A DNA stretch of 32,000 nt. Source: Candidatus Methanoperedens sp. Its GTDB lineage: Archaea > Halobacteriota > Methanosarcinia > Methanosarcinales > Methanoperedenaceae. The stretch's first letter is position 1, and each line of letters starts with the position of its first letter. Positions 4,268 through 32,000 of this stretch are shown here, piece after piece. The translations under genes were made by a program, and so were the position numbers. The stretch is from NCBI GenBank assembly GCA_027460535.1, contig JAPZAR010000030.1:89827-121826 (forward strand), in the 5' to 3' direction. The notes under the pieces are model-generated. The model was not told where the DNA came from. It saw only the letters and a program-made list of their open reading frames with translations, and searched no databases.

Positions 4268-4711
4268 ATGGAATGCAGGACATTGATTTGGTACATGTCC
4301 GCGATTATCGGCACAGGCGCACCGGTCTCCTCTGACCTCAATCTGCTGCTTCAAATTATAGTCCTGACAGCGCTCATTTTCGGAGCAATGTCAGGCATTA
4401 AAAAGCGCTTTATCAAACATTCAGGGATCATGACTGCGGTAGTTATTCTGAACGCCGCAGGACTTATATTCGTAATGGCTCCCTCGCTTTTTATATACTT
4501 GACATCGCCTCTTGAGATTTTTTCATTCAGCATGTTTTCCACCTCTCTGCACGTACTGACCGGAATCTCTGCAATCGCGACCGGTATGGCGTTCATCCTG
4601 AATAAGAAGCCCCTGAATCTGCGATTGTGGATGCGCCTGAGTTTCCTGTTATGGGTCACCAGTTTTATTCTCGGCTTGTTGATATATTTACAGATCGCAG
4701 GGCTGATCTGA
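4268..4711 (+). CDS. Integral membrane protein with four predicted TM helices (DUF420-like or heme-b-binding-partner-like?)
   Basis: 147-aa ORF (alternative start ATG 4295, MSAIIG...). Four hydrophobic helices, with His residues in TM2 (KHSG) and TM4 (SLHVLTG). It lies directly after the Moco-oxidoreductase remnant, in the same frame as that remnant's FHC segment. Confidence 0.6.
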   Translation: MECRTLIWYMSAIIGTGAPVSSDLNLLLQIIVLTALIFGAMSGIKKRFIKHSGIMTAVVILNAAGLIFVMAPSLFIYLTSPLEIFSFSMFSTSLHVLTGISAIATGMAFILNKKPLNLRLWMRLSFLLWVTSFILGLLIYLQIAGLI

Positions 4712-4728
4712 ACTCGTGGCATGTGCTT

Positions 4729-6087
4729 TTAACGCATCAGCCTGAATACAACATCTGTTATGAACCCCAGTGGTTTTACTATTATTTCGACTCTCTCGCC
4801 AAATTGTCTCCTCAGCTTGTGCTGCGCCATAGCCTTAACTATCGCGAACTTCAGCTTGGTCTCGGAAAACCGCGACCTGAACAACAATTTGTGCCTTAGC
4901 ATACTCTTGCTCGCATGCTCTTCCCAGCCTGCTAAAATAACATCGTCCTTGACCCTTTCGTACAGAGGTGTTCCTGGAATGGGATAGGGTAGTGTAAACG
5001 ACAGATAATCCAGCGGCAGCGATGTGGCAAACCTCACAGTATCAAGTACGGTTTCATCGCTCTCGCCCGGATAGCCTATGATGAAGAATGCTCCTGCTCT
5101 GATATTCGCCTGCTTGACAGCATGTATGGCTTCTCGCGCCTTCGCAGTTGTTATGCTCTTATTCATAAGTTCAAGAACTGAATCGTTTCCCGATTCTATA
5201 CCGAAGAAGATGCTTACGCATCCAGCCCGCTTCATGTTCTCAACCACTTCCCTGTCCACTGTATCAACTCTTGACAGGCATTCCCACTCGATTTCCATGC
5301 CCCTCTCAGTTATCTCTCTGCAAATCTCGAGTATCCTGCCGCGGTTCAGGGTCAGGCAGTCGTCAGCAAACCAGATCCTATCATATCCGAGCGCAATGAT
5401 GCTCTGCATCTCGTCCACGATATTCTTCGCCGACCTTGCCCTGAACGTATTTCCGAATACAGGCTGGCTGCAGAAGTCGCATTTGAATGGGCACCCCCTT
5501 GAGGTCATCAGAGATGTGATGGTGTAGCCGAACTTTTTTTTATAATGCTCTTTATATCCGTTGTTGTCAAAAAGTTCCCTGCTGGGCATTGGAATGTCAT
5601 CCAGCTCAGTAACAGGTTTTCTCTTTTCTGTATATTTTATGCAGCTCCCATCCCGATAGGCTATACCCCTTATTCCAGACAGGTCTCCTTTTCCTTCAAC
5701 TGCTCTCTGGAGCTCAAGCATGGTTTGCTCTCCCTCTCCAATCACAACAACATCGAAATATCTGAGGAACTCTGTCGGATTCAGCGTGGGTTGGGGTCCC
5801 CCTGCCACAAGTAACTCGCAATCGTCTCTCACAAGCCTTGCTAAATCTTTGGCCTTTTCGGTCATTGAAAACATCGAATAGATGCCAATTATTTTGGAAC
5901 CCGCATTCCTGATCCGTTCCAGTGCTTTTCCCTGACTGAGGAAGGTGCAATCTATGATTTCCGCACCGACATCATTCGCTTTGAGGTACGCTGCTATATA
6001 TCCCAGCCCGAGCGGAGGAAACCTGAATATCGAATTATCGCCGTCAGGTAGAATATAAGGATAGACAAGTGTTACTGCACTTTTCAT
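4729..6087 (-). CDS. B12-binding domain radical SAM protein (class B rSAM, COG1032-type), paralog A
   Basis: 452 aa. N-terminal cobalamin-binding-like Rossmann region (FPPLGLGYIAAYL, GIYSM). rSAM cluster motif SRGCPFKCDFCSQ (CxxxCxxC). GIESG motif. Substrate unknown. Confidence 0.9.
   Translation of the reverse strand: MKSAVTLVYPYILPDGDNSIFRFPPLGLGYIAAYLKANDVGAEIIDCTFLSQGKALERIRNAGSKIIGIYSMFSMTEKAKDLARLVRDDCELLVAGGPQPTLNPTEFLRYFDVVVIGEGEQTMLELQRAVEGKGDLSGIRGIAYRDGSCIKYTEKRKPVTELDDIPMPSRELFDNNGYKEHYKKKFGYTITSLMTSRGCPFKCDFCSQPVFGNTFRARSAKNIVDEMQSIIALGYDRIWFADDCLTLNRGRILEICREITERGMEIEWECLSRVDTVDREVVENMKRAGCVSIFFGIESGNDSVLELMNKSITTAKAREAIHAVKQANIRAGAFFIIGYPGESDETVLDTVRFATSLPLDYLSFTLPYPIPGTPLYERVKDDVILAGWEEHASKSMLRHKLLFRSRFSETKLKFAIVKAMAQHKLRRQFGERVEIIVKPLGFITDVVFRLMR
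5710..5738. repeat. 29-nt exact inverted repeat copy 1, inside rSAM paralog A
   Basis: GAGCTCAAGCATGGTTTGCTCTCCCTCTC is the exact reverse complement of 10639-10667. It encodes the EGEQTMLEL segment. Confidence 0.9.
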
Positions 6088-6162
6088 ATGACCTCGCTAC
6101 AATACATCTATCCCTACAAATAGCTTTATTTCATACCCTGCAGATGAACGGATGATCATTCA

Positions 6163-6993
6163 ATGGCTACAAAGCTAACAGAGCCCATTACTATCAGGCT
6201 ATCCGACAGAGTATCCCTCAGACTTTATCCGGATTCAAGACCCCACAACCTGGAGATTGCAAACCTCCAGAAAGGCGTTGTGCTCATGCATGATCGCAAA
6301 GAGCTGATCGGTGAGGGAGCTGGCTTCGGGGCTCCTGTCGTCAGGTATGCTGATCATACTTTTTTCTCAACATCTGCCAAGGTATATTTATATGAGCCGA
6401 ATGTGCTAATGAAGTCCTTTCTGATGGATTCGGTATCACGAAAGAGATTCGGTACCAGTGGACCGTATGTTGATCAAATTTTTTCCATTCTTCACAGGAT
6501 CTTTACGTGGTCGTATTTAAGGTTCAAATGCCGCCCCATCTTTAAGAAGATAATTGAATTCAGGAGAACGCTCGGTTTGCGCACTGAGTTCGTCAAGGTC
6601 AGGTCAAGGGGCATGGTCAATATTACCTACACTCTATCGAGCAGTATGCAGATAAAGGTCGATCTAACAGGACTGGATACCCGGGGATGCAAAGAGATCC
6701 TGATCCTGAACGAACAGGATGGGGATTTTTTCAGGAGATACTTTGACAGAGAAGAGGTTACGGACGACAGGATCGAAGCATGGAGGCAAGTGATTTCAGA
6801 AAATGCCTCCTTTTCTGATGTTAAGGGGTCACTCACGTTCGCTCTTAAAAAGATCAACGGCTCATCACTGATCTCAGGGAGGGAGCATGTGAAGCGCTGC
6901 CTCTCCTGGTCTGGCTTGAACTATTCTTTGAGGCCAGGTACTCGAGATTTCACTTACACACTTGAAATCACGGATGTTTTCAGCAAAAACTAA
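6163..6993 (+). CDS. Hypothetical protein, no recognisable domain
   Basis: 276-aa ORF divergent from rSAM paralog A, 75-bp intergenic. Ordinary composition for the window. No signal peptide, TM helix or known motif identified. Confidence 0.65.
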   Translation: MATKLTEPITIRLSDRVSLRLYPDSRPHNLEIANLQKGVVLMHDRKELIGEGAGFGAPVVRYADHTFFSTSAKVYLYEPNVLMKSFLMDSVSRKRFGTSGPYVDQIFSILHRIFTWSYLRFKCRPIFKKIIEFRRTLGLRTEFVKVRSRGMVNITYTLSSSMQIKVDLTGLDTRGCKEILILNEQDGDFFRRYFDREEVTDDRIEAWRQVISENASFSDVKGSLTFALKKINGSSLISGREHVKRCLSWSGLNYSLRPGTRDFTYTLEITDVFSKN

Positions 6994-7147
6994 TATCCCC
7001 GCAGATCAGTTCTGGCAATGAAGCAGTCGATGCCGTTCAAAAAAATGCGGTTGAAAACAGAAGTGACGAACGGGTGACCGTTTCAATTCTTGTTGGTAGT
7101 TAGGTCAATGTGTTGCACATCTGATTGATTGACGTAAAAACAACCTG

Positions 7148-7160
7148 AAATAAGGCTTAT
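7148..7160. repeat. 13-bp direct repeat AAATAAGGCTTAT (left copy) flanking the DUF4062 cassette
   Basis: Exact match to 8107-8119, read directly from the sequence. Confidence 0.85.
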
Positions 7161-7209
7161 GGATTTTTCAAAGACACACACATATATCATCCTTCGCCAT
7201 TACTGGGCT

Positions 7210-8028
7210 TTATCCTCCTACATTATCCTTTATCTTATTTTCTATATCAGCTATTAAATCTGAAAACGATCCACCACTAAGAATAATACTAACTATATTA
7301 ACATAAAAATGTAAAACTGTCTGATCTATTTTCTTCATTCTCTTCAATAATGAAATAATCATAGCTTTAATCAGACACGTTTTAACATTTACAGAATTGA
7401 AAGGCGTTTTTGTCATATCCATATCTATCCTTAAATTTTCAAGAATTTCATTTAGGAAATCTTTAGTAAGTCTACATATATCGTCTGTTACTATAATAAT
7501 TTTATTCGCAATCAACGAATCCAAGGCCAATTTCATCTCCAATTCAGTATATCTGTCTTCTTTTGATTTATTACTGGTTTTACAAACGACAATTCTTGCA
7601 ATCCACCATGACAAATCATTTTTTAACTTCGCCCTCAAGTCCATAATATCATCAAAATAACAAAGAACATGTCCTTCATCGGGATCAGAAATCGACTCTA
7701 TGAAAGATTGCAATTTCTTTTCTCTTCGGCCTAGATTAAATTTCTTAATATAAATAATTGTATCTATATTATGAGCTCTAGCTGTTTCATATTCTTCAAT
7801 GGTGGGACCACTATATTTTTTGTCAAATATTCCAACGTACAAATCAGAATTCATGACCTCATCAATATATGTTTGTCTAAGTCCTGATGATCGGGCGCCC
7901 CATTCTTCAAACATTGCAGGCTCAAATCCAAACTGATTCAAGCTTTCTTTGACAATAAGCCGTTCATCTTTTAGTTCATTTATCGTTGAACTTATAAACA
8001 CCTGAGGTTTTTTCCTTTTTTGGATCAT
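7210..8028 (-). CDS. DUF4062 (TIR-like) domain protein with an uncharacterised helical C-terminal half
   Basis: 272 aa. The N-terminus, VFISSTINELKDERLIVKESL...FEPAMFEEWGA...SDLYVGIFDKKYSGPTIEEYETA...IIYIKK, follows the DUF4062 pattern (vFiSSt..dL..eR...., mfE...a, sD.yv.i....Yg..t..Ey..A). The gene and its flanks are visibly AT-rich relative to neighbours. Confidence 0.8.
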   Translation of the reverse strand: MIQKRKKPQVFISSTINELKDERLIVKESLNQFGFEPAMFEEWGARSSGLRQTYIDEVMNSDLYVGIFDKKYSGPTIEEYETARAHNIDTIIYIKKFNLGRREKKLQSFIESISDPDEGHVLCYFDDIMDLRAKLKNDLSWWIARIVVCKTSNKSKEDRYTELEMKLALDSLIANKIIIVTDDICRLTKDFLNEILENLRIDMDMTKTPFNSVNVKTCLIKAMIISLLKRMKKIDQTVLHFYVNIVSIILSGGSFSDLIADIENKIKDNVGG

Positions 8029-8106
8029 CCTACTTTTTACCCATTCTTATTTAGTGATGCTCTCCACATTTCGTACAGAGCCCTGAGGTTTCTATGGACT
8101 ATATGT

Positions 8107-8119
8107 AAATAAGGCTTAT
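8107..8119. repeat. 13-bp direct repeat AAATAAGGCTTAT (right copy)
   Basis: Exact match to 7148-7160. Confidence 0.85.
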
Positions 8120-8284
8120 TCCAATATATCTATTTAAGGATTTGAAAAATGCGCTAATTCCCCGAAGGGCATAATAGATATATCTAGTGAAACCGGAGAA
8201 TTATTAAAAGGAAATAGAAAAATAGTGAAAACTTTATTCTAAGGTGATATCGACTTAAGTATATCAGCAATAAAGAGATGTAAC

Positions 8285-9595
8285 GTGTACGCAGAAACCG
8301 TTAGGCACAGGATTGTATCATTACTTCCGCGAGATGAATTGGCTTTACTTCTGAGCCTGATGATACAGATTCCCCTCGCCTTTTTCCTGGGTCACTTCTA
8401 TGACATAAGAATATCAATGGGGACAGGGTATCTTGTTGCCGGGGGGTTGAATCCCTATGAACAGCACTATCTTGGTGGCATTTTCAATCACGAGATATTC
8501 CAGGGAATAACCCCAGGCATAGGGTATCCTCCTCCGTGGGCTATAATCCTTGGGCTCATCTATTTGCTTTCCTATAAAATCGTCCATGACCTGTTCCTGT
8601 ATAACTTCGCGATCAAGCTCCCTATAATAGCGGCAAACATATTCCTTGCCTATGCTGTAAGAAATATGCTGCTGCACGATCTGAAGATCGATCGAATAAA
8701 AGCCAGAAGAGCGTGGCTTCTCATGCTATTTAATCCATTTATTCTGATCACCACCTCTGCCTGGGGCCAGATCGACGGGATCGTTGCTTTCCTTGTGATA
8801 TTATCGTTTCATTACCTGCATCGCAAAATGACCGGCAGGTCTGCTGTCCTGCTTGCGCTTGCTATTTCCCTGAAACCTATTGCCCTGCCCCTGCTTCCCC
8901 TTCCGATAATATACACAGCCCGTGGGTCGATGAAAAGTTGCGCAAAATATCTCATAATCTCTCTGGCATCGATTCTTGTTCTAACAGTAGTGCCGTTCTA
9001 CCTGTTAAACTGGAATCCTGGGCCTGTATTGAGAAATTGGGATGCTCACGAAACGGTTGCAGGAGGTTTATCCATCTTTGGTTTCATGGAAGCCCTGCAG
9101 GGTACATACCATATCCCTGATTCCATGTACCTGCTCGGGTTTGTATGGATACCTGCTGTAGCATTAGGCTACATCTTCCTGCATCCGCGGTTCAATTCGC
9201 CAGAGGAAATGACACGGGGCGCTTGTAGCATAATCCTGATATTCCTGCTCACTCGCGCCTGGGTTTCAGAGCCCAATCTTGACCTGCTCATACCATTCCT
9301 GGTAATTGTGATGACATTGAATAACATATCATGGAAGGTCTATACTTTCGCCTGGTCTGTACCTCTCGTTTTTGCATTCTTAAATACATCTATCCCGCAG
9401 CTCTTTGCACTGATATATCCACAGGTTATTGGAGACCTATCGGGTATTGACCATAAGATACGTGGCGTAAGGCTGATGGCAGGTTATCTTACAGTTCTGG
9501 TGTGGCAGGTCACGGGCTGGTATATCGTTATCAAATTGAACCGGCACTTATCGAGGAGCAGGTTCAATAGAATCACCTCACTTAGCGAAAGTTGA
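8285..9595 (+). CDS. Polytopic membrane glycosyltransferase, GT-C fold (DUF2029/GT87/PIG-M-like mannosyltransferase family)
   Basis: 436 aa with a GTG start and about 10-12 TM helices. A short acidic/aromatic first loop and the central segment LFNPFILITTSAWGQIDGIVAFL...LAISLKPIALPLLPL are typical of DUF2029-type GT-C enzymes. Confidence 0.7.
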   Translation: MYAETVRHRIVSLLPRDELALLLSLMIQIPLAFFLGHFYDIRISMGTGYLVAGGLNPYEQHYLGGIFNHEIFQGITPGIGYPPPWAIILGLIYLLSYKIVHDLFLYNFAIKLPIIAANIFLAYAVRNMLLHDLKIDRIKARRAWLLMLFNPFILITTSAWGQIDGIVAFLVILSFHYLHRKMTGRSAVLLALAISLKPIALPLLPLPIIYTARGSMKSCAKYLIISLASILVLTVVPFYLLNWNPGPVLRNWDAHETVAGGLSIFGFMEALQGTYHIPDSMYLLGFVWIPAVALGYIFLHPRFNSPEEMTRGACSIILIFLLTRAWVSEPNLDLLIPFLVIVMTLNNISWKVYTFAWSVPLVFAFLNTSIPQLFALIYPQVIGDLSGIDHKIRGVRLMAGYLTVLVWQVTGWYIVIKLNRHLSRSRFNRITSLSES

Positions 9596-10292: not shown

Positions 10293-11624
10293 GTGCTTCT
10301 CATCTATCCATACTCTCACAGCGAGCCGGGATGGAGAAAGCTCTGGCTTTTCCCGCCGCTTGGACTCGGGTACCTGGCTTCCGTTCTCAGGAAGAGCGGG
10401 ATAAGCGTCAGAATACTCGATGGAACATTCATGCCGCCGGAGGAACTTATAAAACAAGCCCAGGAGCTTTCACCTGGCGTGGTAGGCATATACTGCATGG
10501 TCACGATGAGAGATAATGCGCTCAGGATCGCGAGGGCTCTTAAAAATCGTCCGGATAAGCCTCTTCTTGTGGCAGGCGGGCCATTCCCGACATCGGAGCC
10601 CGGAAAATTCCTTGATGATTTTGATATCGTGGTTTTAAGAGAGGGAGAGCAAACCATGCTTGAGCTCGTAAAAACGCATCTTGCCGGGCAGGGATTTTCA
10701 GGTATAAAGGGTATCGCGCTAAGGGATGAGAGCGGAACAATAAGAATGGACTTGAGGGAGTATGAAGAGAACATCGATTCCATCCCGCATCCTGCCCGTG
10801 ATCTGTTTGAGAACAAGAAGTACATGAGGTACTGGGAAAAAAAATTTGGGTATACCTGCACGCCTGTCTTAACAACAAGGGGCTGCCCTTACAATTGCGA
10901 CTACTGCGCACGTCCCGTGTTCGGGAACCGCTACAGGGAGAGGAGTTTCCAGGATGTTGTTAGTGAGATTGAAGAGGTTTTGGAGCTTGGTTACAGCAGG
11001 ATATGGTTTTCCGATGATGTCTTCACGCTCAATAAAGAAAGGATCATGGAACTCTGCGATGAGATAAAAAGGCGCAGGCTTGTATTCAGATGGGACTGCC
11101 TTTGCAGGGTTGACAATGTAAACTTCGAGCTGTTCAAGAATATGCGTGATGCAGGCTGTGCCAGGGTGCTCTTCGGGATAGAATCCGGGGACAACGGGGT
11201 TTTAAGTATGCTGAAAAAGAGATTCACTGTCGCGGAAGCGCAAAGTGCAGTTTCTGCGGCAAAGAAGGCAGGGATCGAGGCAGGAACATTTTTCATCGTG
11301 GGCTATCCCGGTGAAACCGAAGAAACCATACTCAGGACGATTCGCTTCTCCACGCACCTGCCCTCGGATTACCTGTCTTACACATTACCGTATCCCCTGC
11401 CCGGCACAGCACTTTACAAGAGGCTTGAAGACAGGCTTACACGCGATGAGTGGAAGATGGCGGGGCATAATCTTCTCATGTTCAGGGGCGATTTTTCGCA
11501 GGTGAAACTGCGGTTTGCGATCAATAAAGGCATGATACAGCACAGGCTCAGGAAAAACGGGTACGTCAGGCTGGCTGATGGATTCGAAGCGGTCACTGAT
11601 GGCGTGTTCAGAATGCTTCGATAA
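10293..11624 (+). CDS. B12-binding domain radical SAM protein, paralog B
   Basis: 443 aa with a GTG start. Collinear with paralog A along its whole length, roughly half of positions identical by eye. Motifs: FPPLGLGYLASVL, TRGCPYNCDYCARP, GIESG. Confidence 0.9.
   Translation: MLLIYPYSHSEPGWRKLWLFPPLGLGYLASVLRKSGISVRILDGTFMPPEELIKQAQELSPGVVGIYCMVTMRDNALRIARALKNRPDKPLLVAGGPFPTSEPGKFLDDFDIVVLREGEQTMLELVKTHLAGQGFSGIKGIALRDESGTIRMDLREYEENIDSIPHPARDLFENKKYMRYWEKKFGYTCTPVLTTRGCPYNCDYCARPVFGNRYRERSFQDVVSEIEEVLELGYSRIWFSDDVFTLNKERIMELCDEIKRRRLVFRWDCLCRVDNVNFELFKNMRDAGCARVLFGIESGDNGVLSMLKKRFTVAEAQSAVSAAKKAGIEAGTFFIVGYPGETEETILRTIRFSTHLPSDYLSYTLPYPLPGTALYKRLEDRLTRDEWKMAGHNLLMFRGDFSQVKLRFAINKGMIQHRLRKNGYVRLADGFEAVTDGVFRMLR
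10639..10667. repeat. 29-nt exact inverted repeat copy 2, inside rSAM paralog B
   Basis: GAGAGGGAGAGCAAACCATGCTTGAGCTC is the exact reverse complement of 5710-5738. Confidence 0.9.
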
Positions 11625-16135: not shown

Positions 16136-16897
16136 CTATTTTTGATTTTCAGCTAATATTATGTTAGAGCGGCCTTTTCTTATTTTTTTAACCAATCCTC
16201 TGCTTTCCAGATCGTCCAGCATCAGACTGACCTTTGCTTCGGAAAAGGCAGATTTTTTCCTCAACTCTTTCTGGGTCGTTCTTCCCCCCATTTTTATTAT
16301 GGTATCATAGATATTGCTGAGGTCTTCAGGAAGGTCGATCTTTTTGGTTTCTATGGATTTTTCAGCCAATTGTGCTCCGGGTTCGTGTACAATTCGTTCC
16401 CCATGCCTTTTTTTCCTGATCCAGAAAAAAATTGATAAGGCAGAACCAATCAAAATAACGATTATTATAATGTAGGTATATGTATTACTTCCACTTTTTC
16501 TATCCAAGTCAGAAGTAAGATTCATATCGCCGAGATATTCGTACTCCGAATCGATCGGTGGGAAAAGCAGAAGATCTATATTGAAGTCTTCGGATACATC
16601 TGTACCGGTTATCAGGAGATTCTCTTCGCCTTCATATTCAAGGATGTTGTTATGGAAGTATCTGGCCTTGATCGTGTAATTGCCCGGGGCAAGTCTGTCA
16701 AAAGAATACATGCCTGTTGTCGAAACATTGACCTGAACACGTGTGGAATTGTCAAGAAGTTCAACTATTGTATTTTTAAAAGGTTTTTCAAAATCAGACC
16801 ATTCGTAGATGGTTCCGTACACTCTTGCTGCATGTGCATGGATAATGAGAGTGGTTGACAGCAAGATGAGAAGGAATAACCATCGTTTCGTTCGCAC
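16136..16897 (-). CDS. Membrane-anchored winged-helix regulator with an extracellular carboxypeptidase-regulatory-like (beta-sandwich) domain
   Basis: 253 aa. Signal peptide, then an ARVYGTIY...GNYTIKA beta-sandwich-like domain with four N-x-S/T sequons. One TM helix (YTYIIIIVILIGSALSIFFWI) is followed by RKKRH, then a C-terminal wHTH (GGRTTQKELRKKSAFSEAKVSLMLDDLESRGLVKK). Confidence 0.75.
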   Translation of the reverse strand: MRTKRWLFLLILLSTTLIIHAHAARVYGTIYEWSDFEKPFKNTIVELLDNSTRVQVNVSTTGMYSFDRLAPGNYTIKARYFHNNILEYEGEENLLITGTDVSEDFNIDLLLFPPIDSEYEYLGDMNLTSDLDRKSGSNTYTYIIIIVILIGSALSIFFWIRKKRHGERIVHEPGAQLAEKSIETKKIDLPEDLSNIYDTIIKMGGRTTQKELRKKSAFSEAKVSLMLDDLESRGLVKKIRKGRSNIILAENQK

Positions 16898-17041
16898 ATA
16901 TTCTAATTTTAAAATAAAGTATATATAGTTTATTATAAAGCAAAAAGAGCATTTATAAAGGTTTGTAAAGGATTATCATGGTTTAAAAAACTTAATTTTT
17001 CTATCGCATAAAAGTATATTTATCTATCCAGTCATTATAGT

Positions 17042-17076
17042 ATTGGGTACCCAATCGCAAGATAATCCAGCGATTG
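17042..17076 (+). promoter_or_regulatory. Palindrome plus hairpin in the 5' region of the 17102 gene
   Basis: Perfect 14-nt palindrome ATTGGGTACCCAAT (17042-17055), overlapping a 7-bp inverted repeat CAATCGC...GCGATTG (17052-17058 / 17070-17076). It is followed by a strong SD, AAGGAGG (17087-17093), 8 nt before the ATG. Confidence 0.3.
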
Positions 17077-17101
17077 TAAAAATAAGAAGGAGGACTAAAA
17101 A

Positions 17102-18103
17102 ATGAAAAATAGAAAAGGGCTCAGTATATTAACATCCCTCATTGCGGCGTTGTTCATACTGAGCATGTTCTCCGGAATTGCGGCAGCCCAGTCGTCCGGG
17201 GAACAAATAGCAAAGGGTCAATACCAGATACAAAAGCAGAGATACGAGGAAACAAGAGATAAATTCGAGGTAGCAAAGCAATCTTTCGACAAAGCTTATG
17301 CACAGCTCAAGAATGCAAAAGATAATAAATCCCAGGAAGAGCTCAATCAGAAAACCCAGGATTATCTTGAAAATGCGATAGATCATGCCATTGCAAATCT
17401 TGAAGTCCTGAAAACCAGGGCGCAAAATCAAACAGATAAAGGAGCGATCCCAACCGATGCGGTTGCAATTATCGATGGCCATATTGCCCAGCTGCAACAG
17501 ATACGAACGAATGTACAGCAGGCCAGTACCATGCAGGAACTGAAAGACGCCAATAAGGCCTTAAAGGAGCAGTGGAACACCATCAGGCTCGAAACGCGTT
17601 ACTATTTCGGACTGATACTCAACGAAAGGATAAACAATTTCATTACAAAGGGAAATAATGCCACGGCAAGACTGGATGCGGCAATCCAGAAAATGAAATC
17701 ACAGGGGAAGGATACAACCAAACTTGAGACCGATGAAGCGAATTTCAAGAATTCAATGAACAATGCAGAAAACAGTGAGCAGGCAACTGCCGTATTGCTT
17801 GCGAACCCCAATGGATTTGCACCCAACGGCACGGTTACAAACAGCAAGGATGCAGCAGCATTCATGCTGCAGGTCGATAAATCGCAAAGAGAAACCATCA
17901 AAGACCTGAGAGCTGCAAGCAGGCAACTGATAGAGTTCGTCAGAGATTTCAGAAAACTGGCAGGCAACAAAGCCACAGTTGACGGAACGGGCAAGTCCGG
18001 TGAGGGCGTGCCGGGAACCACGGTTACAGGAACACCGACCCAGACACTTTCAGGCAGCACACTGACATCCCTTTCAGGCAGGAAAATGGAGATTAAGAAA
18101 TGA
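17102..18103 (+). CDS. Secreted alpha-helical/coiled-coil protein of unknown function
   Basis: 333 aa. Signal peptide (SILTSLIAALFILSMFSGIAAAQ), a long Q/K/E/A-rich helical region and a Thr/Gly-rich C-terminal tail. Strong SD. Confidence 0.7.
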   Translation: MKNRKGLSILTSLIAALFILSMFSGIAAAQSSGEQIAKGQYQIQKQRYEETRDKFEVAKQSFDKAYAQLKNAKDNKSQEELNQKTQDYLENAIDHAIANLEVLKTRAQNQTDKGAIPTDAVAIIDGHIAQLQQIRTNVQQASTMQELKDANKALKEQWNTIRLETRYYFGLILNERINNFITKGNNATARLDAAIQKMKSQGKDTTKLETDEANFKNSMNNAENSEQATAVLLANPNGFAPNGTVTNSKDAAAFMLQVDKSQRETIKDLRAASRQLIEFVRDFRKLAGNKATVDGTGKSGEGVPGTTVTGTPTQTLSGSTLTSLSGRKMEIKK

Positions 18104-18430: not shown

Positions 18431-18961
18431 ATGCAAATACTTGTCCATATCTGCTGTGCGCCCTGCTTTACGTATCCTCACAAACGGTTGATTGAGGAAG
18501 GGCATGAGGTGACAGGTTTTTTTTATAATCCCAATATACACCCTTATTCAGAATATAGAAACAGGATGGGTTCACTTGAGAAATATGCGGAACTGAAGGG
18601 AACCCGGATAATCTACAGGGATGATTACGACCTTGAAAGCTATCTTCGCGGTGCCCTTGCGGCAGATGACAGATGCACTTTCTGCTATACCTCCCGGCTA
18701 GGTGAAGCGGCAAGAACAGCAGTCTTACTGGGATTTTCTGCTTTCACTACCACACTTTTGATATCTCCCTACCAGAAGCATGATATGCTTGTACACGCGG
18801 GAGAGAAGGCTGCGGATGAACACAGCATTGAGTTCTATTATGAAGATTTCAGGGATGGTTACAGAGAATCTCGTGAAATGGCAAAGGGACTTGAGCTTTA
18901 CATGCAAAAATACTGCGGATGTATTTTCAGTGAAAAAGAACGATATCTTAAGTTAAAATAA
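18431..18961 (+). CDS. queH: Epoxyqueuosine reductase QueH (DUF208)
   Basis: 176 aa with the HICCAPC N-terminal motif, FYNPNIHPYSEY, RCTFCY, TTTLLISPYQ and C-terminal YCGCIFS. These match the QueH family signature. Confidence 0.85.
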   Translation: MQILVHICCAPCFTYPHKRLIEEGHEVTGFFYNPNIHPYSEYRNRMGSLEKYAELKGTRIIYRDDYDLESYLRGALAADDRCTFCYTSRLGEAARTAVLLGFSAFTTTLLISPYQKHDMLVHAGEKAADEHSIEFYYEDFRDGYRESREMAKGLELYMQKYCGCIFSEKERYLKLK

Positions 18962-19689: not shown

Positions 19690-21863
19690 TTCTCACCTCT
19701 AAACTTGATTTGAAATTCTGTTCCATTGTCGCGCATGAGATTTATCTTACCATGAAGCTGGTTTTCAGCCAGTATCGTGACCATGTGCAATCCCAGTGAT
19801 TTAACATCTTTAAGTTCCATGTCTTTAGGGATACCGATTCCCGTATCGCTCACCACAAGTTCAATAGATTTGTCACCTGATGAGCGAAGGACAATTTTTA
19901 TTTCCCCTGTTCTGTCTCCAGGGAAGGCATATTTCAATGAATTCGATACAAGCTCGTTGATGATCAATCCGCATGGAATGGCAGAATCTATAGCGAGCGA
20001 TACATCCTCCACATCAACTATAGGCTTGATCTTGGCTGCATTTGTCCCGTATGACTGATACAGACCGCTTACCAGATCATTTACATATCCCCGAAGATCA
20101 ATTTTTGAGAAATTATTGGATTGATACAGCTTCTCATGGATAAGGGACATTGAAATGATCCTGTTGCGGCTTTCTTTGAACATTTCGATAACATTGTTAT
20201 CCTTGGTGGATTCTGACTGGAGGCTCAATAGACTTGAGATGATCTGCATATTGTTCTTGACACGATGATGGATTTCTCGAAGAAGAACTTCTTTTTCTGC
20301 AAGGGATGACCTTATCTGCTCATCAGCTCTCTTGCGCTCTGTGATATCGTGGATGACCATCTGTACGGCAGGATTTCCTTGATATGTGAATGGAATTGCT
20401 ACCTCTTCAACATCGATTACCGTTCCGTCTATCCTGACAAATTTCACTTCTTTCAGAGGTGCCTCATTTCCATCATCTATTATCATCCGATATCGTTTTT
20501 CCGCAATCTCCTGGTGGTCAGGATAAATAAAATCCATTATTGGTCTTCCAAGGAGCTGTCCAGGATCGGTTGCACCCAGAAGCTGGGCTCCGGCGGCGTT
20601 TATGAAAATGATATTGCCAGAGCTATGAATAGCTATAGCATCAGGAGAAAGCTCTACAAGTCTGCGGAAGCGATCTTCACTCTCCTGGAGCGCCTCCTCG
20701 GCTTTTTTACGCTCAGTAATATCCCTTATTATGCTTGAGAGCCCGGCTATTTTCTCATCTGAATCCCGAATGGGAGAAATAGTCATGCTTACATTTATGC
20801 TATTTCCATCCTTTCGCAGTCGTACAGTGTCAAATCCAGCTACAGCTCCTCCTGACAGGACATTGCCTATTATGCGTTGCCTTTCTGACTGAAGGTGTGA
20901 GGGGACTATCAATGGCGATAGGCTTTTTCCTGTTACTTCTTCGGACGTCCATCCGAAAATGGTTTCAGCGCTCCTATTCCAGGATGTGATATTTTCCCCA
21001 ATATCGGTTATTATGATTGCATCATTGGCATTATCAAACAGGTTCCTATACCTCTCCTCTGCAACATAGCGAAGCTTGTGTTCTGCGTCAGCTATCTTTT
21101 CATACGGCTGTTGTATCGAAGATTTAAAAAGGGCAAAATATATAAAATAAAATCCAGCGGCTTTTAGCAAGTGCCCTGAATAATCATAAAAGAGATATAC
21201 TGAATTACTGAAAACAATGATAACCAGACCGTATATTAGACAAATAATACTGGTCTGTCCGGTTTTCTGAAGTTTTAGTATGTATAGGTAGATCGTATAT
21301 ACGATCAACGATCCAGATACTACCAATATCATTATCCCTGCAGTGGAAAGGCCCCCATCCAGGTTATGCATCCTGGGCAGATAGGATGGGTATAGAAATA
21401 TAAGAGCCATAGATATTAATGGCAAAGCCACGGCACATGTAAAAATGACGGGTTTGTTAATCATCTTTGGAAATGCATCTTTATAAATATACACACTAGC
21501 AAGAAATAAAATCGAAGAGATGATTCTTGCCTCAGCCCAGAACATTTCTGCCTTCACCGCGGAGTTAGGTGTGACAAAATCCGGCATGTACGGGTAAGAA
21601 AGCATATTGAACAGGTCAAATATCCCTATGACCAAGAATGTTGCTCCAAGGAAAAGCGAATGGTTGTCCCTGCTTTTGCTATATGCCAACCAGTTTATGG
21701 CAAAAATTGAAAAGGCCAGAACTATTGGTAAAAGCTGTGTTGCGACTTCAAAATAGTTGCTTACTAAATGGGAAACAGACATGTATGCTTCGATGACATC
21801 CCCAATGAGCAGCATCGAAACTATGATAATCAGCACTGTCAATATGTGGTTTGTTCTAGCCAT
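19686..21863 (-). CDS. Sensor histidine kinase: MASE3-like membrane domain, tandem PAS domains, HisKA_2 and HATPase_c
   Basis: 725 aa. About 7-8 N-terminal TM helices, then at least two PAS repeats (each ending in DITERK). Phospho-acceptor motif HHRVKNNMQIISSLLSLQ. ATPase motifs ELVSNSLKYAF and DTGIGIP. Confidence 0.9.
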   Translation of the reverse strand: MARTNHILTVLIIIVSMLLIGDVIEAYMSVSHLVSNYFEVATQLLPIVLAFSIFAINWLAYSKSRDNHSLFLGATFLVIGIFDLFNMLSYPYMPDFVTPNSAVKAEMFWAEARIISSILFLASVYIYKDAFPKMINKPVIFTCAVALPLISMALIFLYPSYLPRMHNLDGGLSTAGIMILVVSGSLIVYTIYLYILKLQKTGQTSIICLIYGLVIIVFSNSVYLFYDYSGHLLKAAGFYFIYFALFKSSIQQPYEKIADAEHKLRYVAEERYRNLFDNANDAIIITDIGENITSWNRSAETIFGWTSEEVTGKSLSPLIVPSHLQSERQRIIGNVLSGGAVAGFDTVRLRKDGNSINVSMTISPIRDSDEKIAGLSSIIRDITERKKAEEALQESEDRFRRLVELSPDAIAIHSSGNIIFINAAGAQLLGATDPGQLLGRPIMDFIYPDHQEIAEKRYRMIIDDGNEAPLKEVKFVRIDGTVIDVEEVAIPFTYQGNPAVQMVIHDITERKRADEQIRSSLAEKEVLLREIHHRVKNNMQIISSLLSLQSESTKDNNVIEMFKESRNRIISMSLIHEKLYQSNNFSKIDLRGYVNDLVSGLYQSYGTNAAKIKPIVDVEDVSLAIDSAIPCGLIINELVSNSLKYAFPGDRTGEIKIVLRSSGDKSIELVVSDTGIGIPKDMELKDVKSLGLHMVTILAENQLHGKINLMRDNGTEFQIKFRGEN

Positions 21864-22006
21864 TGATCTCCGTCCTCTTCATTCAACTTGTTTGTTAGCA
21901 TTTTTATTCTCAACATTCATTATCCATTTGTGCAGCATAATTGTGGTTAGAGGTTGGCGATAGTCTCCTATCCATCCCTATATCAATTTTTTTTCCCCGC
22001 CAACCT

Positions 22007-23497
22007 TTATTTTGATAATTTGAAAGCGACATAGATCTCACAAAATTCGTTTTCAGAAGCTGTAGTTTGCGACATTGTATGGACTCTTTCAATCTGCTTC
22101 CCAAAAGCATGGGAAATCCATTCATCATATAATCCCTTTATGAAAGTACAATTGATATTATCGTTCTTGGCATCACCTTTTGCCAGATGGCAAGAGGCAA
22201 TTTTACCACAGATGACATTCTCGCTCACGCTTGACCATTTTGATTCCTGGGATAGGACAGTGCTCATCTCTTGCATGTATTTCAAAAATATGGCAGCATC
22301 CCAGACGTCAATTTTTCTTTCTTTTTCGTAATCCTGTATTATTTTCTTGCCAAATTTGCCGCCAAGCGATTTTATGAAATCCTCATTCGATGGGACATTC
22401 TTCAGCATATTTAACATTTTCAGGAGGTCTTTATGATAATCTGTACCTGACTCATCCCTGGCTTTAAAGTCCTCTACCATTCGTAGCAGTATCTTGCCCA
22501 TTTCGGGAAGCTGCTTGAGAACTATAAGGTTCTCACCAATTGTAGAACTATATGTATGACCATTTGAGCTTAATAATTCAACAAACATGTCGGCCAGTTT
22601 TTTTATGGCATCGGTGTCGGAGAGCCCATGGTGTAGTATTATAGATTCCTTATCTATGGTCATGTCCTGGATCAAACCCGTGGATTTATAGAGGACCGTG
22701 ATTTTTTTCAATAATTCTTCGGGCGGGATCTGATTTATGGGACAACCGCAAAACCGCTCAATGCAGATCGATAGTTTAGGCGCGGTTTTTCCTGCCAGTA
22801 TTTCTTCAAAAAGCTGCCCAGGTATTGCCACCATATCATAGTTCATCCTTGCATAAAGGGGTATTATTATGTTCCAGAAATCGTGTTTTTTCTGCAATTC
22901 AGCTAAAGCAAAATCCAGGTACCCGAAATTCTCGGCTACGCTTTTATTGGCCCAACCATTTTCGCCTTTTATCAGGTTCATTTCAAATGAGCCATTTGCG
23001 TTTCGAATTTTTGATACGCCTAAATCATATTTCTTTGCGGAGAATTCAGCAATGATAGCGGCCAGAAACCTTGAAATATCAGGGTTCTTTCCTGTTATGG
23101 ACACACTGGCGCTTCCGGGTTGAAAGTCATTATCATAACTGATCTTAATGGACGAATCCCAATAGATCTCACTTCCAAGTTCATTCAAGCGCTTTTCCAG
23201 AAGAGAAAGGGAGGAAATTGAATCACCGATGATATTGTTAACAGTCTCATCATCGGGAAGCCTGCCTGTAAGATTTTTTAGGGCCCATATAAGGGTTGAT
23301 GATGTCAGGTTTTGCTCCTTTCTTAAACCCGAAATGAGTCTTTTGACGGAATCGGGATCCTGGAATGCAGCATCGGCGAGATCGATCACCTCGCGTATGA
23401 CCGCGCTGAGATTTCCATTGTGCTTTTGCATCAGTGGTTCAAGTTTTCCCAGATATTCTTCATTTAGAGAGATGTTTTTCCTGAGAATCATGTGCAA
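22007..23497 (-). CDS. Putative regulator: N-terminal ribbon-helix-helix-like motif, C-terminal Cys-containing V4R-like region
   Basis: 496 aa. The N-terminus, ISLNEEYLGKLEPLMQKHNGNLSAVIREVIDLA, fits the RHH strand-helix-helix pattern. The C-terminus, CGKIASCHLAKGD...NCTFIKGLYDEWISHAFG...EFCEIYVAF, resembles V4R-type ligand-binding domains. The middle has no recognised domain. The architecture call is inference. Confidence 0.6.
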   Translation of the reverse strand: MHMILRKNISLNEEYLGKLEPLMQKHNGNLSAVIREVIDLADAAFQDPDSVKRLISGLRKEQNLTSSTLIWALKNLTGRLPDDETVNNIIGDSISSLSLLEKRLNELGSEIYWDSSIKISYDNDFQPGSASVSITGKNPDISRFLAAIIAEFSAKKYDLGVSKIRNANGSFEMNLIKGENGWANKSVAENFGYLDFALAELQKKHDFWNIIIPLYARMNYDMVAIPGQLFEEILAGKTAPKLSICIERFCGCPINQIPPEELLKKITVLYKSTGLIQDMTIDKESIILHHGLSDTDAIKKLADMFVELLSSNGHTYSSTIGENLIVLKQLPEMGKILLRMVEDFKARDESGTDYHKDLLKMLNMLKNVPSNEDFIKSLGGKFGKKIIQDYEKERKIDVWDAAIFLKYMQEMSTVLSQESKWSSVSENVICGKIASCHLAKGDAKNDNINCTFIKGLYDEWISHAFGKQIERVHTMSQTTASENEFCEIYVAFKLSK

Positions 23498-23623
23498 TCA
23501 AACCAGAATGAACAGAGGCGGAGAAATCTATCAGTCTCTTTATCTTCCCTTTTCATTATTATCATTATAATTATTAATTGCTTAATAACTTTTTCATCTT
23601 AAATTTTTTAAATATGTAATAAA

Positions 23624-23639
23624 AATAACTTTAGTTATT
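23624..23639. promoter_or_regulatory. 16-nt palindrome AATAACTTTAGTTATT upstream of the RHH-like gene (candidate operator)
   Basis: Perfect 7-bp arms with a 2-nt spacer, about 130 nt upstream of the 23497 start. The half-site AATAACTTT recurs at 23584-23592. Confidence 0.3.
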
Positions 23640-23898
23640 ACCTGACATTTGCAGAATCGGATGAGACCAGGATTTTGGCACCTCATATTTTCAATTACAA
23701 TTCTTAGGTCCATATTACCGGATTATGCACATTATCTCCCGGAATTTACCAACTCTTGTAGCAATTCGCAATATTCTGTTGTGTAACTGTTTGATTGGCT
23801 GAAGCTTAATTCTTCAGGAGACGATCATCTTGGCAGATACTCAGAAGGGCGTAACCACCGACCTCATTGATATTATAAGGCTGCTAATAATCCTTGCA

Positions 23899-24321
23899 AT
23901 GAAGAAGATCAAGCTACAGCATATCCTTTATCTTACGGCCTTCCTTGCTTTTGGAATAGGTGATGGTATAACAGGCGCGCTGATGATGAACTCAAAAGGG
24001 ATCGGTATGGAGGCAAACCCTATCGTGAGGATTTTATTCATGGCCCGGGGTATTGAGGGTGTAATGACCGGCAAGATGTGGCTTACTTTCATAATTCTTG
24101 CTGCAACTTATATTGTTCAGCTCAATTCCCCCAATATGTACTGGACCGTTAATGGGTTCTTAATTGCCATTACCGTTGGCGGGCTGATGGCAGTGAATGC
24201 CAACATTACAGCTATGGCAGGCCAAATCCCGACTGAACCCGGAGCGTTAATACTGGCATACTTGATTTTGATGTTTATATTGACCGAGATCGGAAGTTTT
24301 GTTGATGGAAAGGCACACTAA
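23899..24321 (+). CDS. Small membrane protein, DUF5658-like
   Basis: ATG at 23899 preferred over the TTG at 23830. Four TM helices. The GIGDGITG...GMEANPIV motif resembles DUF5658. Confidence 0.55.
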   Translation: MKKIKLQHILYLTAFLAFGIGDGITGALMMNSKGIGMEANPIVRILFMARGIEGVMTGKMWLTFIILAATYIVQLNSPNMYWTVNGFLIAITVGGLMAVNANITAMAGQIPTEPGALILAYLILMFILTEIGSFVDGKAH

Positions 24322-24376: not shown

Positions 24377-26899
<2,523 letters not shown>

Positions 26900-27013: not shown

Positions 27014-27790
27014 TTAGATTTTTATCAATATCTCATCACCCAGGGTTTTGTTGAAAAAAGCTGCGGCATTCCCCATATTTACCGCAATTTCAAGGAATCC
27101 ATGGCTGCCAATTAATGCCAGGGGCTCTCCCGTTCCAGAAAATCCATAAGAGCTAAGAAAAGGAACCTTTCTTCCCTGGATCTCGAGCAAATCGCCATAT
27201 TTGAATTCTACGATATCGGATGATATGTTTGTCACAATGTTCCCGAATGAATCGATAAATATGATCATGCCCTCCAGCGCACCTTTTTTCTTCCTTCCTT
27301 GTCCAAATTCCAGATCTATATAATCAAATATCTGTTCCCCTGAAGCCCTTATATCCAGTCCTTTTGAGATATGCGCTCCAACCGGCGCGAAAATATCTCT
27401 CCCATGAAATGTGCCGGACACATTCTTACGGAACAGCTTCTCATTTGTAATTATATAAGCCTCAAAATCCCCAATGCTCCTTGCTGCGGGGATGAGAAGA
27501 CCGTTATCAGGACCCGTAAAATAATGGGTTCCAAAATAATCAGATTCAGCCTTAACTGCAATCTGACGACGCTCCGTTCCTACCCCGGGATCGACCACAG
27601 CTATATGCACAGTCCCGGATGGGAAAAACCGCGCGCAGGACATCAATATGAATGCTCCGGCGCGTATATCGTACCTGGGAATTGAATGCGAGATGTCGAC
27701 TATACTGGCGGCCGGATTGATGCTCAGGATTACCCCTTTCATGGAAGCAGGGTACACATCCCCGAAATCTGAGAGCAGCGTTATGACCAT
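27014..27790 (-). CDS. SAM hydroxide adenosyltransferase / SAM hydrolase (DUF62; fluorinase-chlorinase superfamily)
   Basis: 258 aa with ITLLSDFG, VVDPGVGT, GPDNGLL and HGRDIFAP, characteristic of DUF62 proteins. Confidence 0.85.
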   Translation of the reverse strand: MVITLLSDFGDVYPASMKGVILSINPAASIVDISHSIPRYDIRAGAFILMSCARFFPSGTVHIAVVDPGVGTERRQIAVKAESDYFGTHYFTGPDNGLLIPAARSIGDFEAYIITNEKLFRKNVSGTFHGRDIFAPVGAHISKGLDIRASGEQIFDYIDLEFGQGRKKKGALEGMIIFIDSFGNIVTNISSDIVEFKYGDLLEIQGRKVPFLSSYGFSGTGEPLALIGSHGFLEIAVNMGNAAAFFNKTLGDEILIKI

Positions 27791-30363: not shown

Positions 30364-30759
30364 TTATGATGAAACAGGTTTGCTATGTTTCAATTGCTTA
30401 AGCCGTTTTATTCTTGACAATGTTATCTCTGCATCTTTATTCCGCTTTTTTTCGAAGTCCGCTATTATCTTATCCGCACCAACTTTAAGCGAGTAAATTT
30501 TAAACGGTCTGCCCTTACCTTGCGTTTTCTTTTGTTCCCACTCGATTATCCAGTCGCGTTCTTTTAACTCCTTCATGGCAACGCTGACTTCAGGTTGATG
30601 CAATCGAGCACCTTTCTCAAGTTCAATCGCTGTAGTTTCATTCACATTCCTGAGATAGGCAAGCGTCCTTGCAACGTTCCTGTTCATCCCAAGATTAATG
30701 AGTGCTTCTGCAAATTCTTCATCTTTCTCATCAAGTTGTTTTATATTGAGGGATTTCAT
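30364..30759 (-). CDS. Winged-helix transcriptional regulator (ArsR/COG4738-like)
   Basis: 131 aa. LGMNRNVARTLAYLRNVNETTAIELEKGARLHQPEVSVAMKELKERDWI is an HTH plus wing (GKGRPFKIYSL), a pattern common in methanogen ArsR-like regulators. Confidence 0.8.
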   Translation of the reverse strand: MKSLNIKQLDEKDEEFAEALINLGMNRNVARTLAYLRNVNETTAIELEKGARLHQPEVSVAMKELKERDWIIEWEQKKTQGKGRPFKIYSLKVGADKIIADFEKKRNKDAEITLSRIKRLKQLKHSKPVSS

Positions 30760-31034
30760 ATAGACTCCAACTCCTATAATATATTATATAATAAATTGTT
30801 ACTATTAAAGCTTTCCATTATATCAGCATAGTCTTGAGGTAAACGTATATTTTTCTTGGCAACAATAATTCCATGATATTTTTCTATCTGATCAGGCAAG
30901 ATTTGATCATGCAGGTATACATGCCGTCTGCTTATGCCTGAAAACAAGGAATATGGCGGTCTCCTTTGAGTTCGTTCTATGCCTCACACCTGAACCGGGT
31001 TTTGATTCATAATTGGATTAACCTATTCAATACA

Positions 31035-31535
31035 TCACCCAATTTTAGAGAACCACTTTTTATCTCCAAGAACTACAGATGTTTTTATCTTAAGTTCAGG
31101 AGTTGACCAATATTTCCTTTGTAACCCGTATCCCTCCTCCAGGGGAACCAATCTAAACCCATTTTTTTCATAGAATCGAATCGCATTGATATCATTCAAC
31201 CATGTGGCAATCAAGATGGGTTCTTGTGTAAGTTTTTGAAGATAGGATAATAATTTTTCCCCTATACCCCGGTTCTGTTTGGTCGGGCACACATAAGCAT
31301 GTCTTATTAGAGTCACATCTTGTTTCTGTTGAATACCCATTACACCGACCAGTTCTCCATTTTCTTCATAGCCATAAAGTACTATTCCTTCATCCAGCTC
31401 ATGTCTCAGTTCTTCTTTGGACATGTATGGCTCTTTCCAATATTCTGCGGGGATAATTCCTTTATATACCCAGGCAGCACCATTGATGATCTCGTAAATC
31501 CTGTCGAGATCAAGATTATTGTATTTTCGTATCAC
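31035..31535 (-). CDS. GNAT family N-acetyltransferase
   Basis: 166 aa. Acetyl-CoA-binding motif VCPTKQNRGIGEKLLSYL (Q/RxxGxG/A) and C-terminal FYEKNGF. Confidence 0.85.
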   Translation of the reverse strand: MIRKYNNLDLDRIYEIINGAAWVYKGIIPAEYWKEPYMSKEELRHELDEGIVLYGYEENGELVGVMGIQQKQDVTLIRHAYVCPTKQNRGIGEKLLSYLQKLTQEPILIATWLNDINAIRFYEKNGFRLVPLEEGYGLQRKYWSTPELKIKTSVVLGDKKWFSKIG

Positions 31536-31590
31536 GATTTAATGCCTCTTTCATAATGCATATACCATAATAACGGCACTGTGATTAAGA

Positions 31591-31833
31591 TTATAAGTAA
31601 ACTCCAATAGAACGGGCTGTCGTATTTGATTTTCGTCCCCCTTCTTTTCCAGGATGAGAAAAGACCGTAAATGCACAATAAACAATAATATAGACAATAA
31701 TATCTCTTGATAAAGTATCTGCTGGAACGTGTAAACCATTCTTGAGCGCAACAACAAGGCTTAACAAACAGATTCCAGCTACTATTGAGACTTTATCTTT
31801 ATCATTTAATTTCATAATTTTGTATTGCACCAT
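31591..31833 (-). CDS. Hypothetical small membrane protein (uncertain)
   Basis: 80-aa ORF with two hydrophobic stretches. It competes with an overlapping same-strand ORF (31551-31757) in an AT-rich region. No homology recognised. Confidence 0.25.
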   Translation of the reverse strand: MVQYKIMKLNDKDKVSIVAGICLLSLVVALKNGLHVPADTLSRDIIVYIIVYCAFTVFSHPGKEGGRKSNTTARSIGVYL

Positions 31834-31932
31834 TGGTTTTACTCAATTGTTTCAGGATAGGGGTGGTTACCAATTCATGAGTTAGCCTTATAAATTTAAC
31901 TATTTTTTATACTTGCAGCAAAATTTATTATA

Positions 31933-31981: not shown

Positions 31982-32000
31982 CATTGGAGTTTAATGTAGA

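Follow-up and report, generated by a model that had tools for sequence, protein, structure and literature searches.

Proteins in which a DUF4062/NIR domain is joined to an auxiliary (AUX) region form a recently described class of single-gene defence systems. The DUF4062/NIR domains are NADases, the DUF4062+AUX proteins Swarozyc and Evangelion confer abortive-infection defence, and the AUX region acts as the sensor (bioRxiv 10.64898/2026.05.01.722283, 10.64898/2026.06.25.731849, 10.64898/2026.09.04.749371). Here we describe a gene of this architecture in an archaeon, located at positions 7210–8028 (minus strand) of a 32,000-nt stretch of DNA from Candidatus Methanoperedens sp. (hereafter, the window). 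An earlier reading of the sequence (the original prediction) had taken this gene for a horizontally acquired one-gene cassette, with two flanking 13-mers as the target-site duplication (TSD) or att remnant of its integration. Our analysis indicates that the gene is a self-contained, compositionally foreign one-gene module, probably acquired horizontally, and comparison with related loci shows that the 13-mers are internal to the insert and are not its scars. Taking all parts of the explanation together, we consider it likely that the locus is a NIR-AUX defence module in a strain-variable slot.

Swarozyc, represented by KpSwz (PDB 10wc), is a single-gene DUF4062+AUX antiphage NADase (bioRxiv 10.64898/2026.05.01.722283). 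Like it, the Methanoperedens protein joins within a single chain a DUF4062 TIR-like domain, at the N-terminus, to a helical auxiliary domain, at the C-terminus, and a profile built from 52 diverse relatives matches KpSwz over the whole NIR domain (E=6.3e-9), with E79 aligned to the catalytic E97. The patchy distribution and horizontal spread of the gene are also as published for Swarozyc homologues. It differs from Swarozyc in its archaeal host, in its length (272 aa versus 326 for KpSwz), and in its AUX domain, for which no similarity was detected; the alignment ends at query-profile residue 142, corresponding to position 155 of the KpSwz chain. Given this unlike AUX domain, the protein is unlikely to sense its trigger by the phage-portal route of KpSwz. 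The second close system, Evangelion (Eva01), consists of a plasmid-borne DUF4062 core with a short AUX (bioRxiv 10.64898/2026.06.25.731849). With it the archaeal protein shares a compact single-gene architecture, a diversified AUX region, and counterparts of three motifs, namely an aromatic residue (F11), the catalytic E-Y pair (E79-Y80), and, close to where the domains meet, a conserved Trp (W142). Unlike Evangelion, it is encoded on an archaeal chromosome and not on a plasmid.

Two kinds of locus are also relevant to the comparison. Hotspots of defence and accessory genes between conserved core genes are well described in bacteria, and integron gene cassettes are reported also in Archaea. 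The Methanoperedens locus shares with the bacterial hotspots its two conserved anchors, the existence of empty sites, varied small conflict-system cargo, low G+C content (GC), and the lack of mobility genes in the slot. It differs in being archaeal (ANME-2d lineage) and very small, in carrying some cargo that is not obviously defensive, and in having its left junctions fixed at a terminator and its right junction at a promoter. The likeness to integron cassettes lies in single promoter-proximal units, the size of an open reading frame (ORF), that differ by strain at one locus. Unlike integron cassettes, these units have no attC architecture, integrase or attI, have their own promoters, occur in both orientations, and have ragged left junctions. 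The gene is a new archaeal case of the single-gene NIR/DUF4062 defence architecture, in a small hotspot, though one that will not surprise a specialist.

A strain-variable slot between two conserved genes

The left anchor of the locus is a conserved gene for a 276-aa hypothetical protein (6163–6993, plus strand), which has no Pfam or NCBIfam match. With this protein as the query, we collected 12 related Methanoperedens loci, in which it is 85–93% identical; a scan of JGI metagenomes contributed two loci only, and all comparison loci (given below by L numbers) are metagenome assemblies. The right anchor (8285–9595, plus strand, GTG start) encodes a GT87 (GT-C fold) glycosyltransferase matched by Pfam, with orthologues that are 86–94% identical at the nucleotide level.

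Between these conserved anchors lies a strain-variable hotspot, empty in some relatives and filled with varying cargo in others. Eight slot states were found across the 12 loci, ranging in size from 0 to 4.3 kb. Two sites are empty. In L022 the 276-aa and GT87 genes are 176 bp apart, of which 118 nt cannot be aligned to the window, and in L023 they are separated by 24 bp. The two genes are ancestrally adjacent. The remaining loci hold at least six different cargos, including TIR, TumE, ParE toxin-antitoxin, PD-(D/E)XK, acylphosphatase, and TPR genes. L009 carries genes for a TIR_2/SEFIR protein, a TumE toxin with its HVO_A0114 helix-turn-helix (HTH) partner, a DUF7557 protein, and a PD-(D/E)XK protein. 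A membrane protein gene and a ParE/DUF7557 pair occupy the slot in L008, and the same pair recurs in L021 next to a gene for a 482-aa protein. L020 encodes a 333-aa protein and an 843-aa TPR protein, three loci (L010, L018, L024) have an acylphosphatase-domain gene, and the cargo of L007 and L019 is interrupted by contig ends. GC is low throughout the cargo (0.32–0.39 versus ~0.45), and the cargo genes point in both directions and have promoters of their own. The proposal of a foreign one-gene insert that brings no mobility gene of its own was borne out. The insert is strain-specific and lies between genes that directly adjoin each other in relatives.

Alignment of the window to the empty site of L022 defines the insert. 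A segment of 1,237 bp (7016–8252) replaces 118 bp, with junctions at 7015|7016 and 8252|8253. To the left, a 22-nt 3´ flank of the 276-aa gene (TATCCCCGCAGATCAGTTCTGG, 6994–7015) is common to the relatives, including the empty sites, with blastn alignments breaking at 7015 (L022), 7017 (L008) and 7021 (L023). It is followed by what we term segment A (7016–7125), which is present in filled loci (L007, L018, L019, L020, L021, and a duplicate in L009) and absent from the empty sites. The left breaks fall into two clusters, one at 6993–7021 (L009, L010, L022, L008, L023) and one at 7077–7112 (L018, L019, L020, L007, the L009 duplicate, L021). The second cluster, with break points in the alignments to relatives at 7077, 7093, 7094, 7102, 7105 and 7112 of segment A, lies just past a predicted terminator-like hairpin with a T-rich tail (7068–7083). 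The right break is at 8253 in L008, L009, L020 and L022 and at 8257 in L021. Here the homology of the relatives resumes in the conserved GT87 promoter region (8253–8284, plus strand), and the break coincides with a TATA-like sequence (TTAAGTATATCA, 8255–8266) ahead of the GT87 GTG start.

The 118-nt spacer lost from the window includes a conserved 45-nt element (CGATAATCATYGGGATATATACGARYTCATAAATRTTTGTCGGAT), which stands directly 5´ of the GT87 promoter in L008, L009, L020, L021 and L022, the last an empty site. Its coordinates are 12493–12537 in L008, ~4747–4791 in L022, and, as a duplicate, 10889–10933 and 14356–14400 in L009. It may have a role in regulating GT87. We considered its two copies in L009 as a possible att site and rejected this, as the same 45-mer is found in the empty-site spacer of L022 and is single-copy in L008, L020 and L021.

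Other repeats were seen among the filled loci. In L009 (11792–12035, ~200–240 bp) and L018 (7564–8028, 465 bp), the 276-aa gene has its 3´ end partly duplicated (89–95% identical) inside the slot, downstream of other cargo. These copies could be products of one-sided homologous recombination, which they fit, or metagenome-assembly artefacts. The end of the TIR_2/SEFIR protein gene of L009 (12678–12861) contains two 73-nt tandem-like repeats, 111 nt apart and 89% identical; they encode a peptide motif that recurs at the C-terminus. In the window itself, a covarying-looking hairpin spans the right end of segment A (7106–7132), with few sequences to compare.

The 13-mers lie inside the insert

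Within the insert, the module proper (7126–8252, minus strand, GC ~0.32) consists of a predicted promoter, the ORF, and a predicted terminator, and has homologous copies in L017 and L012. The original prediction had described exact 13-mers that bracket 946 bp and a single ORF, and we confirmed this. AAATAAGGCTTAT occurs at 7148–7160 and 8107–8119 on the plus strand, there is no third exact copy in the window, and the only substantial ORF between the two is the DUF4062 gene.

The positions of these repeats do not match the junctions. A TSD or att core must abut the insert and occur once in the empty site. The 13-mers sit 132 and 133 nt inside the insert junctions, and the two empty sites, where a single copy had been expected, hold none, even allowing one mismatch; nor does any other slot variant. 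Because the 13-mers do not abut the insert and the empty sites lack them, their reading as a TSD or att remnant fails. With up to one mismatch, the 13-mer is restricted to loci that have the DUF4062 module, L001–L003 (same species) and L017. In addition, the homology of the module runs past both repeats. L017 is 92% identical to the window over 8128→7082, and L012, which has a different gene neighbourhood, is 80% identical over 8184→7169; the first alignment extends beyond the repeat to 7082, the second to 8184. L017 may carry the module in another context; its short distal flank has no more than 27–28 nt in common with L007 and L020. No terminal inverted repeats are present at the true insert ends, and no further copies of the element were found in the window or in the 27 loci. 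We conclude that the 13-mers are not insertion scars and are chance or local regulatory sequence internal to the module. A flanking direct repeat and an AT-rich gene are not enough to make a mobile cassette.

The composition of the segment, which the original prediction had judged by eye, was deviant when computed. GC is 0.29–0.34 over 7001–8250, the minimum of the window and in line with the one-third that had been claimed; the flanking genes are at 0.45–0.50, so that the accompanying "about one-half" was slightly generous. The segment as a whole has a GC of 0.319, versus 0.445 elsewhere in the window, and is the top tetranucleotide outlier of its size within the window (z=5.2). The DUF4062 ORF has a GC of 0.309 and a GC at third codon positions (GC3) of 0.26, with the other 27 ORFs at GC3 0.36–0.58.

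The 13-mer repeat is locally unusual. A shared word of ≥13 nt in the two intergenic flanks has P=0.0012 in 5000 dinucleotide shuffles, matching an earlier rough estimate of order 1e-3, and no other of the 32 ORFs has flanks with a word >9 nt in common. Corrected over 32 genes, the chance rises to ~0.04, and the window has three direct repeats of ≥13 nt spaced 200–3000 nt (expected, 1.76 ± 1.4). The repeat is thus borderline once the search space is counted, and the statistics alone are not decisive. A 10-nt inverted match (ATTTTTCAAA, 7163–7172, and TTTGAAAAAT, 8141–8150), also part of the original prediction, is present and internal to the insert, with P=0.048 in shuffles. We judged it incidental; neither arm is kept in L012.

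A predicted NADase with a divergent C-terminal half

The 272-aa product of the module matches the DUF4062 family of Pfam (PF13271) with 57.6 bits against a gathering cut-off of 24.7 (E=1.5e-15). Its N-terminal NIR (TIR-like NADase) domain (aa 1–145, encoded at 7594–8028, minus strand) has 1181 relatives at E≤1e-3 in many architectures (128–1834 aa). Full-length relatives are limited to a handful of proteins of 265–285 aa. Family members with 31–34% GC are found in unrelated contexts, by alaS (L011), by a DUF2971 gene (L013–L016), and in L012. In an AlphaFold2 model, the protein begins with five beta-alpha units, and its C-terminal half is helical. The model's best fold matches in the PDB (Foldseek) are DNPH1, the TIR domains of RPP1, SARM1, RPS4/RRS1, TIR-STING and SPARTA TIR-APAZ, and the CMP N-glycosidases MilB and BcmB. 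The same spectrum of fold matches was found for DUF4062 by Le Mouellic et al.

The alignment of 52 diverse relatives has only two invariant columns, E79 (codon 7792–7794, minus strand) and A83. The catalytic residue of KpSwz, represented in the 15-C E97A construct by an Ala (chain position 84), aligns with the E79 column. Besides KpSwz, the 52-sequence profile detected human TEP1 in the PDB (11gz, E=4.6e-4); a narrower profile of 10 sequences found nothing useful there. As judged from these alignments, the NIR domain is intact and keeps the catalytic Glu, and is a predicted TIR-like NADase. By analogy with the characterized systems, the gene product is probably an NAD-destroying antiviral protein.

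The helical AUX domain (aa 146–272, encoded at 7213–7593, minus strand) evolves fast, is confined to this small family, and has no detectable relative in the PDB, Pfam or PADLOC. Between the window and L017, the ratio of non-synonymous to synonymous substitution rates (dN/dS) is 0.16 for NIR and 1.44 for AUX, the latter from 26.5 non-synonymous and 4.5 synonymous changes. The AUX value fits an evolving sensor, with the caveat of small numbers. A scan of IMG/VR with the family alignment found no relative, and there is thus no sign of a viral origin. A tblastn search of 72,556 plasmids gave N-terminal matches only, at <30% identity, none of them in Staphylococcus.

A model for the slot and its cargo

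We suggest that the slot between the 276-aa and GT87 genes holds small cargos that vary between species, mostly conflict-system genes, and that in this genome the 1,237 bp at 7016–8252 would have taken the place of an ancestral 118-nt spacer. The module, at about 7126–8252, would be AT-rich and would bring one ORF along with the promoter and the T-rich terminator that serve it. If the protein works as Swarozyc and Evangelion do, its AUX domain may sense a component of a virus or mobile element and release the NADase, which would then deplete NAD+ and abort the infection. Cargo would most likely turn over by illegitimate insertion or deletion and spread between strains by homologous recombination in the conserved flanks and anchor genes, while selection would retain the terminator of the upstream gene and the promoter of the downstream gene. 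The junctions may look sharp because only events that spare these two elements survive.

Several observations weigh against this model. The confidence of the AlphaFold2 model is low to moderate (mean pLDDT 59.5), and the AUX domain has no detectable similarity to that of KpSwz or to any PDB chain. The AUX dN/dS above 1 comes from 31 substitutions, for which relaxed constraint is an equally possible cause. Searches of the gene and its neighbours with PADLOC (2023) and NCBIfam gave no match. The nearest neighbours are glycosylation and radical-SAM genes and include no defence genes, and some cargos of the slot are not defence-like (acylphosphatase, TPR, and genes of no recognized kind). All the comparison loci come from metagenomes, and the partial duplications in L009 and L018 are possibly assembly artefacts. 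The model also explains the 13-mers, with a local P of 0.0012 (~0.04 over 32 genes), only as a chance or regulatory coincidence. Lastly, the characterized DUF4062 proteins are, to our knowledge, from bacteria and human (TEP1), and none is archaeal.

The locus is a compact hotspot with empty and filled alleles in Methanoperedens, an important anaerobic methane oxidizer and a host of Borgs. Its allele in the window provides a probable archaeal representative of the NIR/DUF4062 NADase effectors, a group characterized only in 2026 and so far in bacteria and in human TEP1. The predicted C-terminal sensor, which is without known relatives, makes the protein a candidate for NAD-depletion immunity in archaea and for finding a viral or Borg trigger.

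Alternative explanations

Among the other explanations considered, the one that survives best concerns the 13-mers, which could be a functional cis-element, such as a palindromic operator at the promoter and 3´ end that represses a toxic NADase gene. The 13-mer contains an 11-nt near-palindrome (ATAAG-G-CTTAT), the reverse strand matching with two mismatches. Six nucleotides of the upstream copy overlap the sequence TTATTTACATATAG (8099–8112, minus strand), the sole upstream block kept in the window, L017, L012 and L013, which probably contains the archaeal TATA box of the gene. The downstream copy, 50 nt past the DUF4062 stop codon, is beside a T5 run (7136–7140) that is a probable terminator. 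Both copies persist in the 92%-identical module of L017, the one downstream of the gene with one mismatch (AAATAAGGCTAAT). However, this conservation is no better than that of the surrounding sequence, and neither copy is kept in the 80%-identical module of L012, nor in L011 or L013. In L012 the upstream position keeps TTATTTACATATAG only, as it does in L013, and the downstream position is not conserved. The module also contains no candidate regulator gene. We consider a dedicated operator unlikely. A sigma-70 promoter scan was not informative, the host being an archaeon.

The DUF4062 gene has a ~50-nt leader, from the TATA-like box to the ATG (8029–8098, minus strand), that is conserved in L017 and L012 (GGGCTCTG..CGAA.TGT.GAGAGCATCAC), and a GCTCT/AGAGC stem is possible within it. 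This leader may be a regulatory 5´ untranslated region.

A second explanation, which we find improbable, is that the gene has no immune function and encodes a nucleotide- or NAD-processing enzyme for the surrounding glycosylation and radical-SAM cluster, or is a decaying remnant. The neighbouring GT2, GT87, B12-radical-SAM and ABC-2 transporter genes would suit such a role, the fold also matches DNPH1 and CMP N-glycosidases, and the AUX dN/dS above 1 could reflect decay. Yet most relatives with the same cluster lack the gene, its composition is foreign, and its relatives are in unrelated contexts. The purifying selection on NIR (dN/dS 0.16), the intact ORF, and the catalytic Glu also speak against this explanation, and in other species the same slot holds TIR_2, TumE, ParE and PD-(D/E)XK genes.

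The slot could, as a third and still less probable possibility, be a dedicated cassette-exchange site serviced in trans by a recombinase whose gene lies outside the locus, for instance on a Borg or some other mobile element of Methanoperedens. The fixed right junction (8252|8253) and the left junctions clustered just past the segment-A hairpin would then be the recognition points, and single-gene immune modules (NIR-AUX, TIR, toxin-antitoxin) would be exchanged there between species. A slot of this kind, if it exists, would be an archaeal, integrase-less analogue of an integron.

It is very unlikely that a one-gene cassette mobilized in trans transposed or integrated site-specifically here and left the 13-mers as its TSD or att core. 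The exact match in both flanks, seen for this ORF alone among the 32, and the foreign composition would be expected from such an event. However, the 13-mer is missing from both empty sites and all other slot variants, the junctions lie outside the repeats, and the sequence beyond the repeats travels with the module in L017 and L012, the latter having the 13-mer at neither position; terminal inverted repeats at the true ends, a transposase, and an integrase are likewise lacking.

The weakest proposal, that the module is a gene cassette of the integron type bordered by a degenerate attC, has next to no probability: GTTAGGT (7099–7105) does fit the GTTRRRY core and lies in a stretch with an imperfect palindrome that folds more stably than shuffled sequence (7060–7165, z=-3.0), yet GTTRRRY occurs at chance frequency in the window (41 observed versus 48.9 expected), no RYYYAAC...GTTRRRY (R''/R') pair is present on either strand of 6500–8600, GTTAGGT is within segment A, which is common to variants with different cargo, no IntI-like gene is encoded in the window, and the cargo of relatives comes in mixed orientations with its own promoters. 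Rfam gave no match at gathering scores over the whole window, or at E≤10 over 6800–8500. The position of the 13-mers inside the junctions, their absence from the empty sites, and the homology that extends beyond the repeats in L012 and L017 also dispose of the miniature inverted-repeat transposable element-like carrier that the original prediction had offered beside the integron.

Genomic setting and further observations

The window is chromosomal DNA of Candidatus Methanoperedens, the source name carried by identical or near-identical proteins. Its assignment to the chromosome follows from the presence of archaeal housekeeping genes (FEN1-type XPG nuclease, malate/lactate dehydrogenase (MDH), TruA, THUMP methyltransferase, aspartate kinase, tRNA-Arg) and from the finding of no integrase or transposase among the ORFs of the 32-kb window. 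Around the DUF4062 gene is a glycosylation-type cluster with genes for an ABC-2 permease, GT2, a 147-aa membrane protein, a B12-radical-SAM protein, the 276-aa protein, GT87/GT-C, and a second radical-SAM protein.

The B12-binding radical-SAM gene (4729–6087, minus strand) is itself a presence/absence polymorphism among the loci. It is present in the window, L009, L018, L019, L021 and L022, and missing in L007, L008, L010, L020 and L024, where a small membrane-protein gene abuts the 276-aa gene. The extra segment that includes it (1,436 bp, within 4709–6149) is edged by TGAAC at 4709–4713 and 6145–6149, a 5-nt microhomology or duplication.

Bacterial-type queuosine genes for QueH, a 383-aa TGT and QueA were also found on this archaeal chromosome (18431–18961, 24741–25892 and 25895–26899), near a SAM hydroxide adenosyltransferase-family gene (27014–27790) and the tRNA-Arg. 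Other stretches of low GC (0.35–0.41) are located at 16136–17250, 21000–24000 and 30364–32000, and cover a DUF7343/TrmB-like HTH gene, a 496-aa ORF without a Pfam match, and MarR and GNAT genes; these stretches may be further accessory regions. In three distant relatives (L025–L027, 53% identity), a 281-aa gene, a 135-aa gene, GT2 and GT87 are found together but rearranged, which suggests that these four genes work jointly as one glycosylation module.

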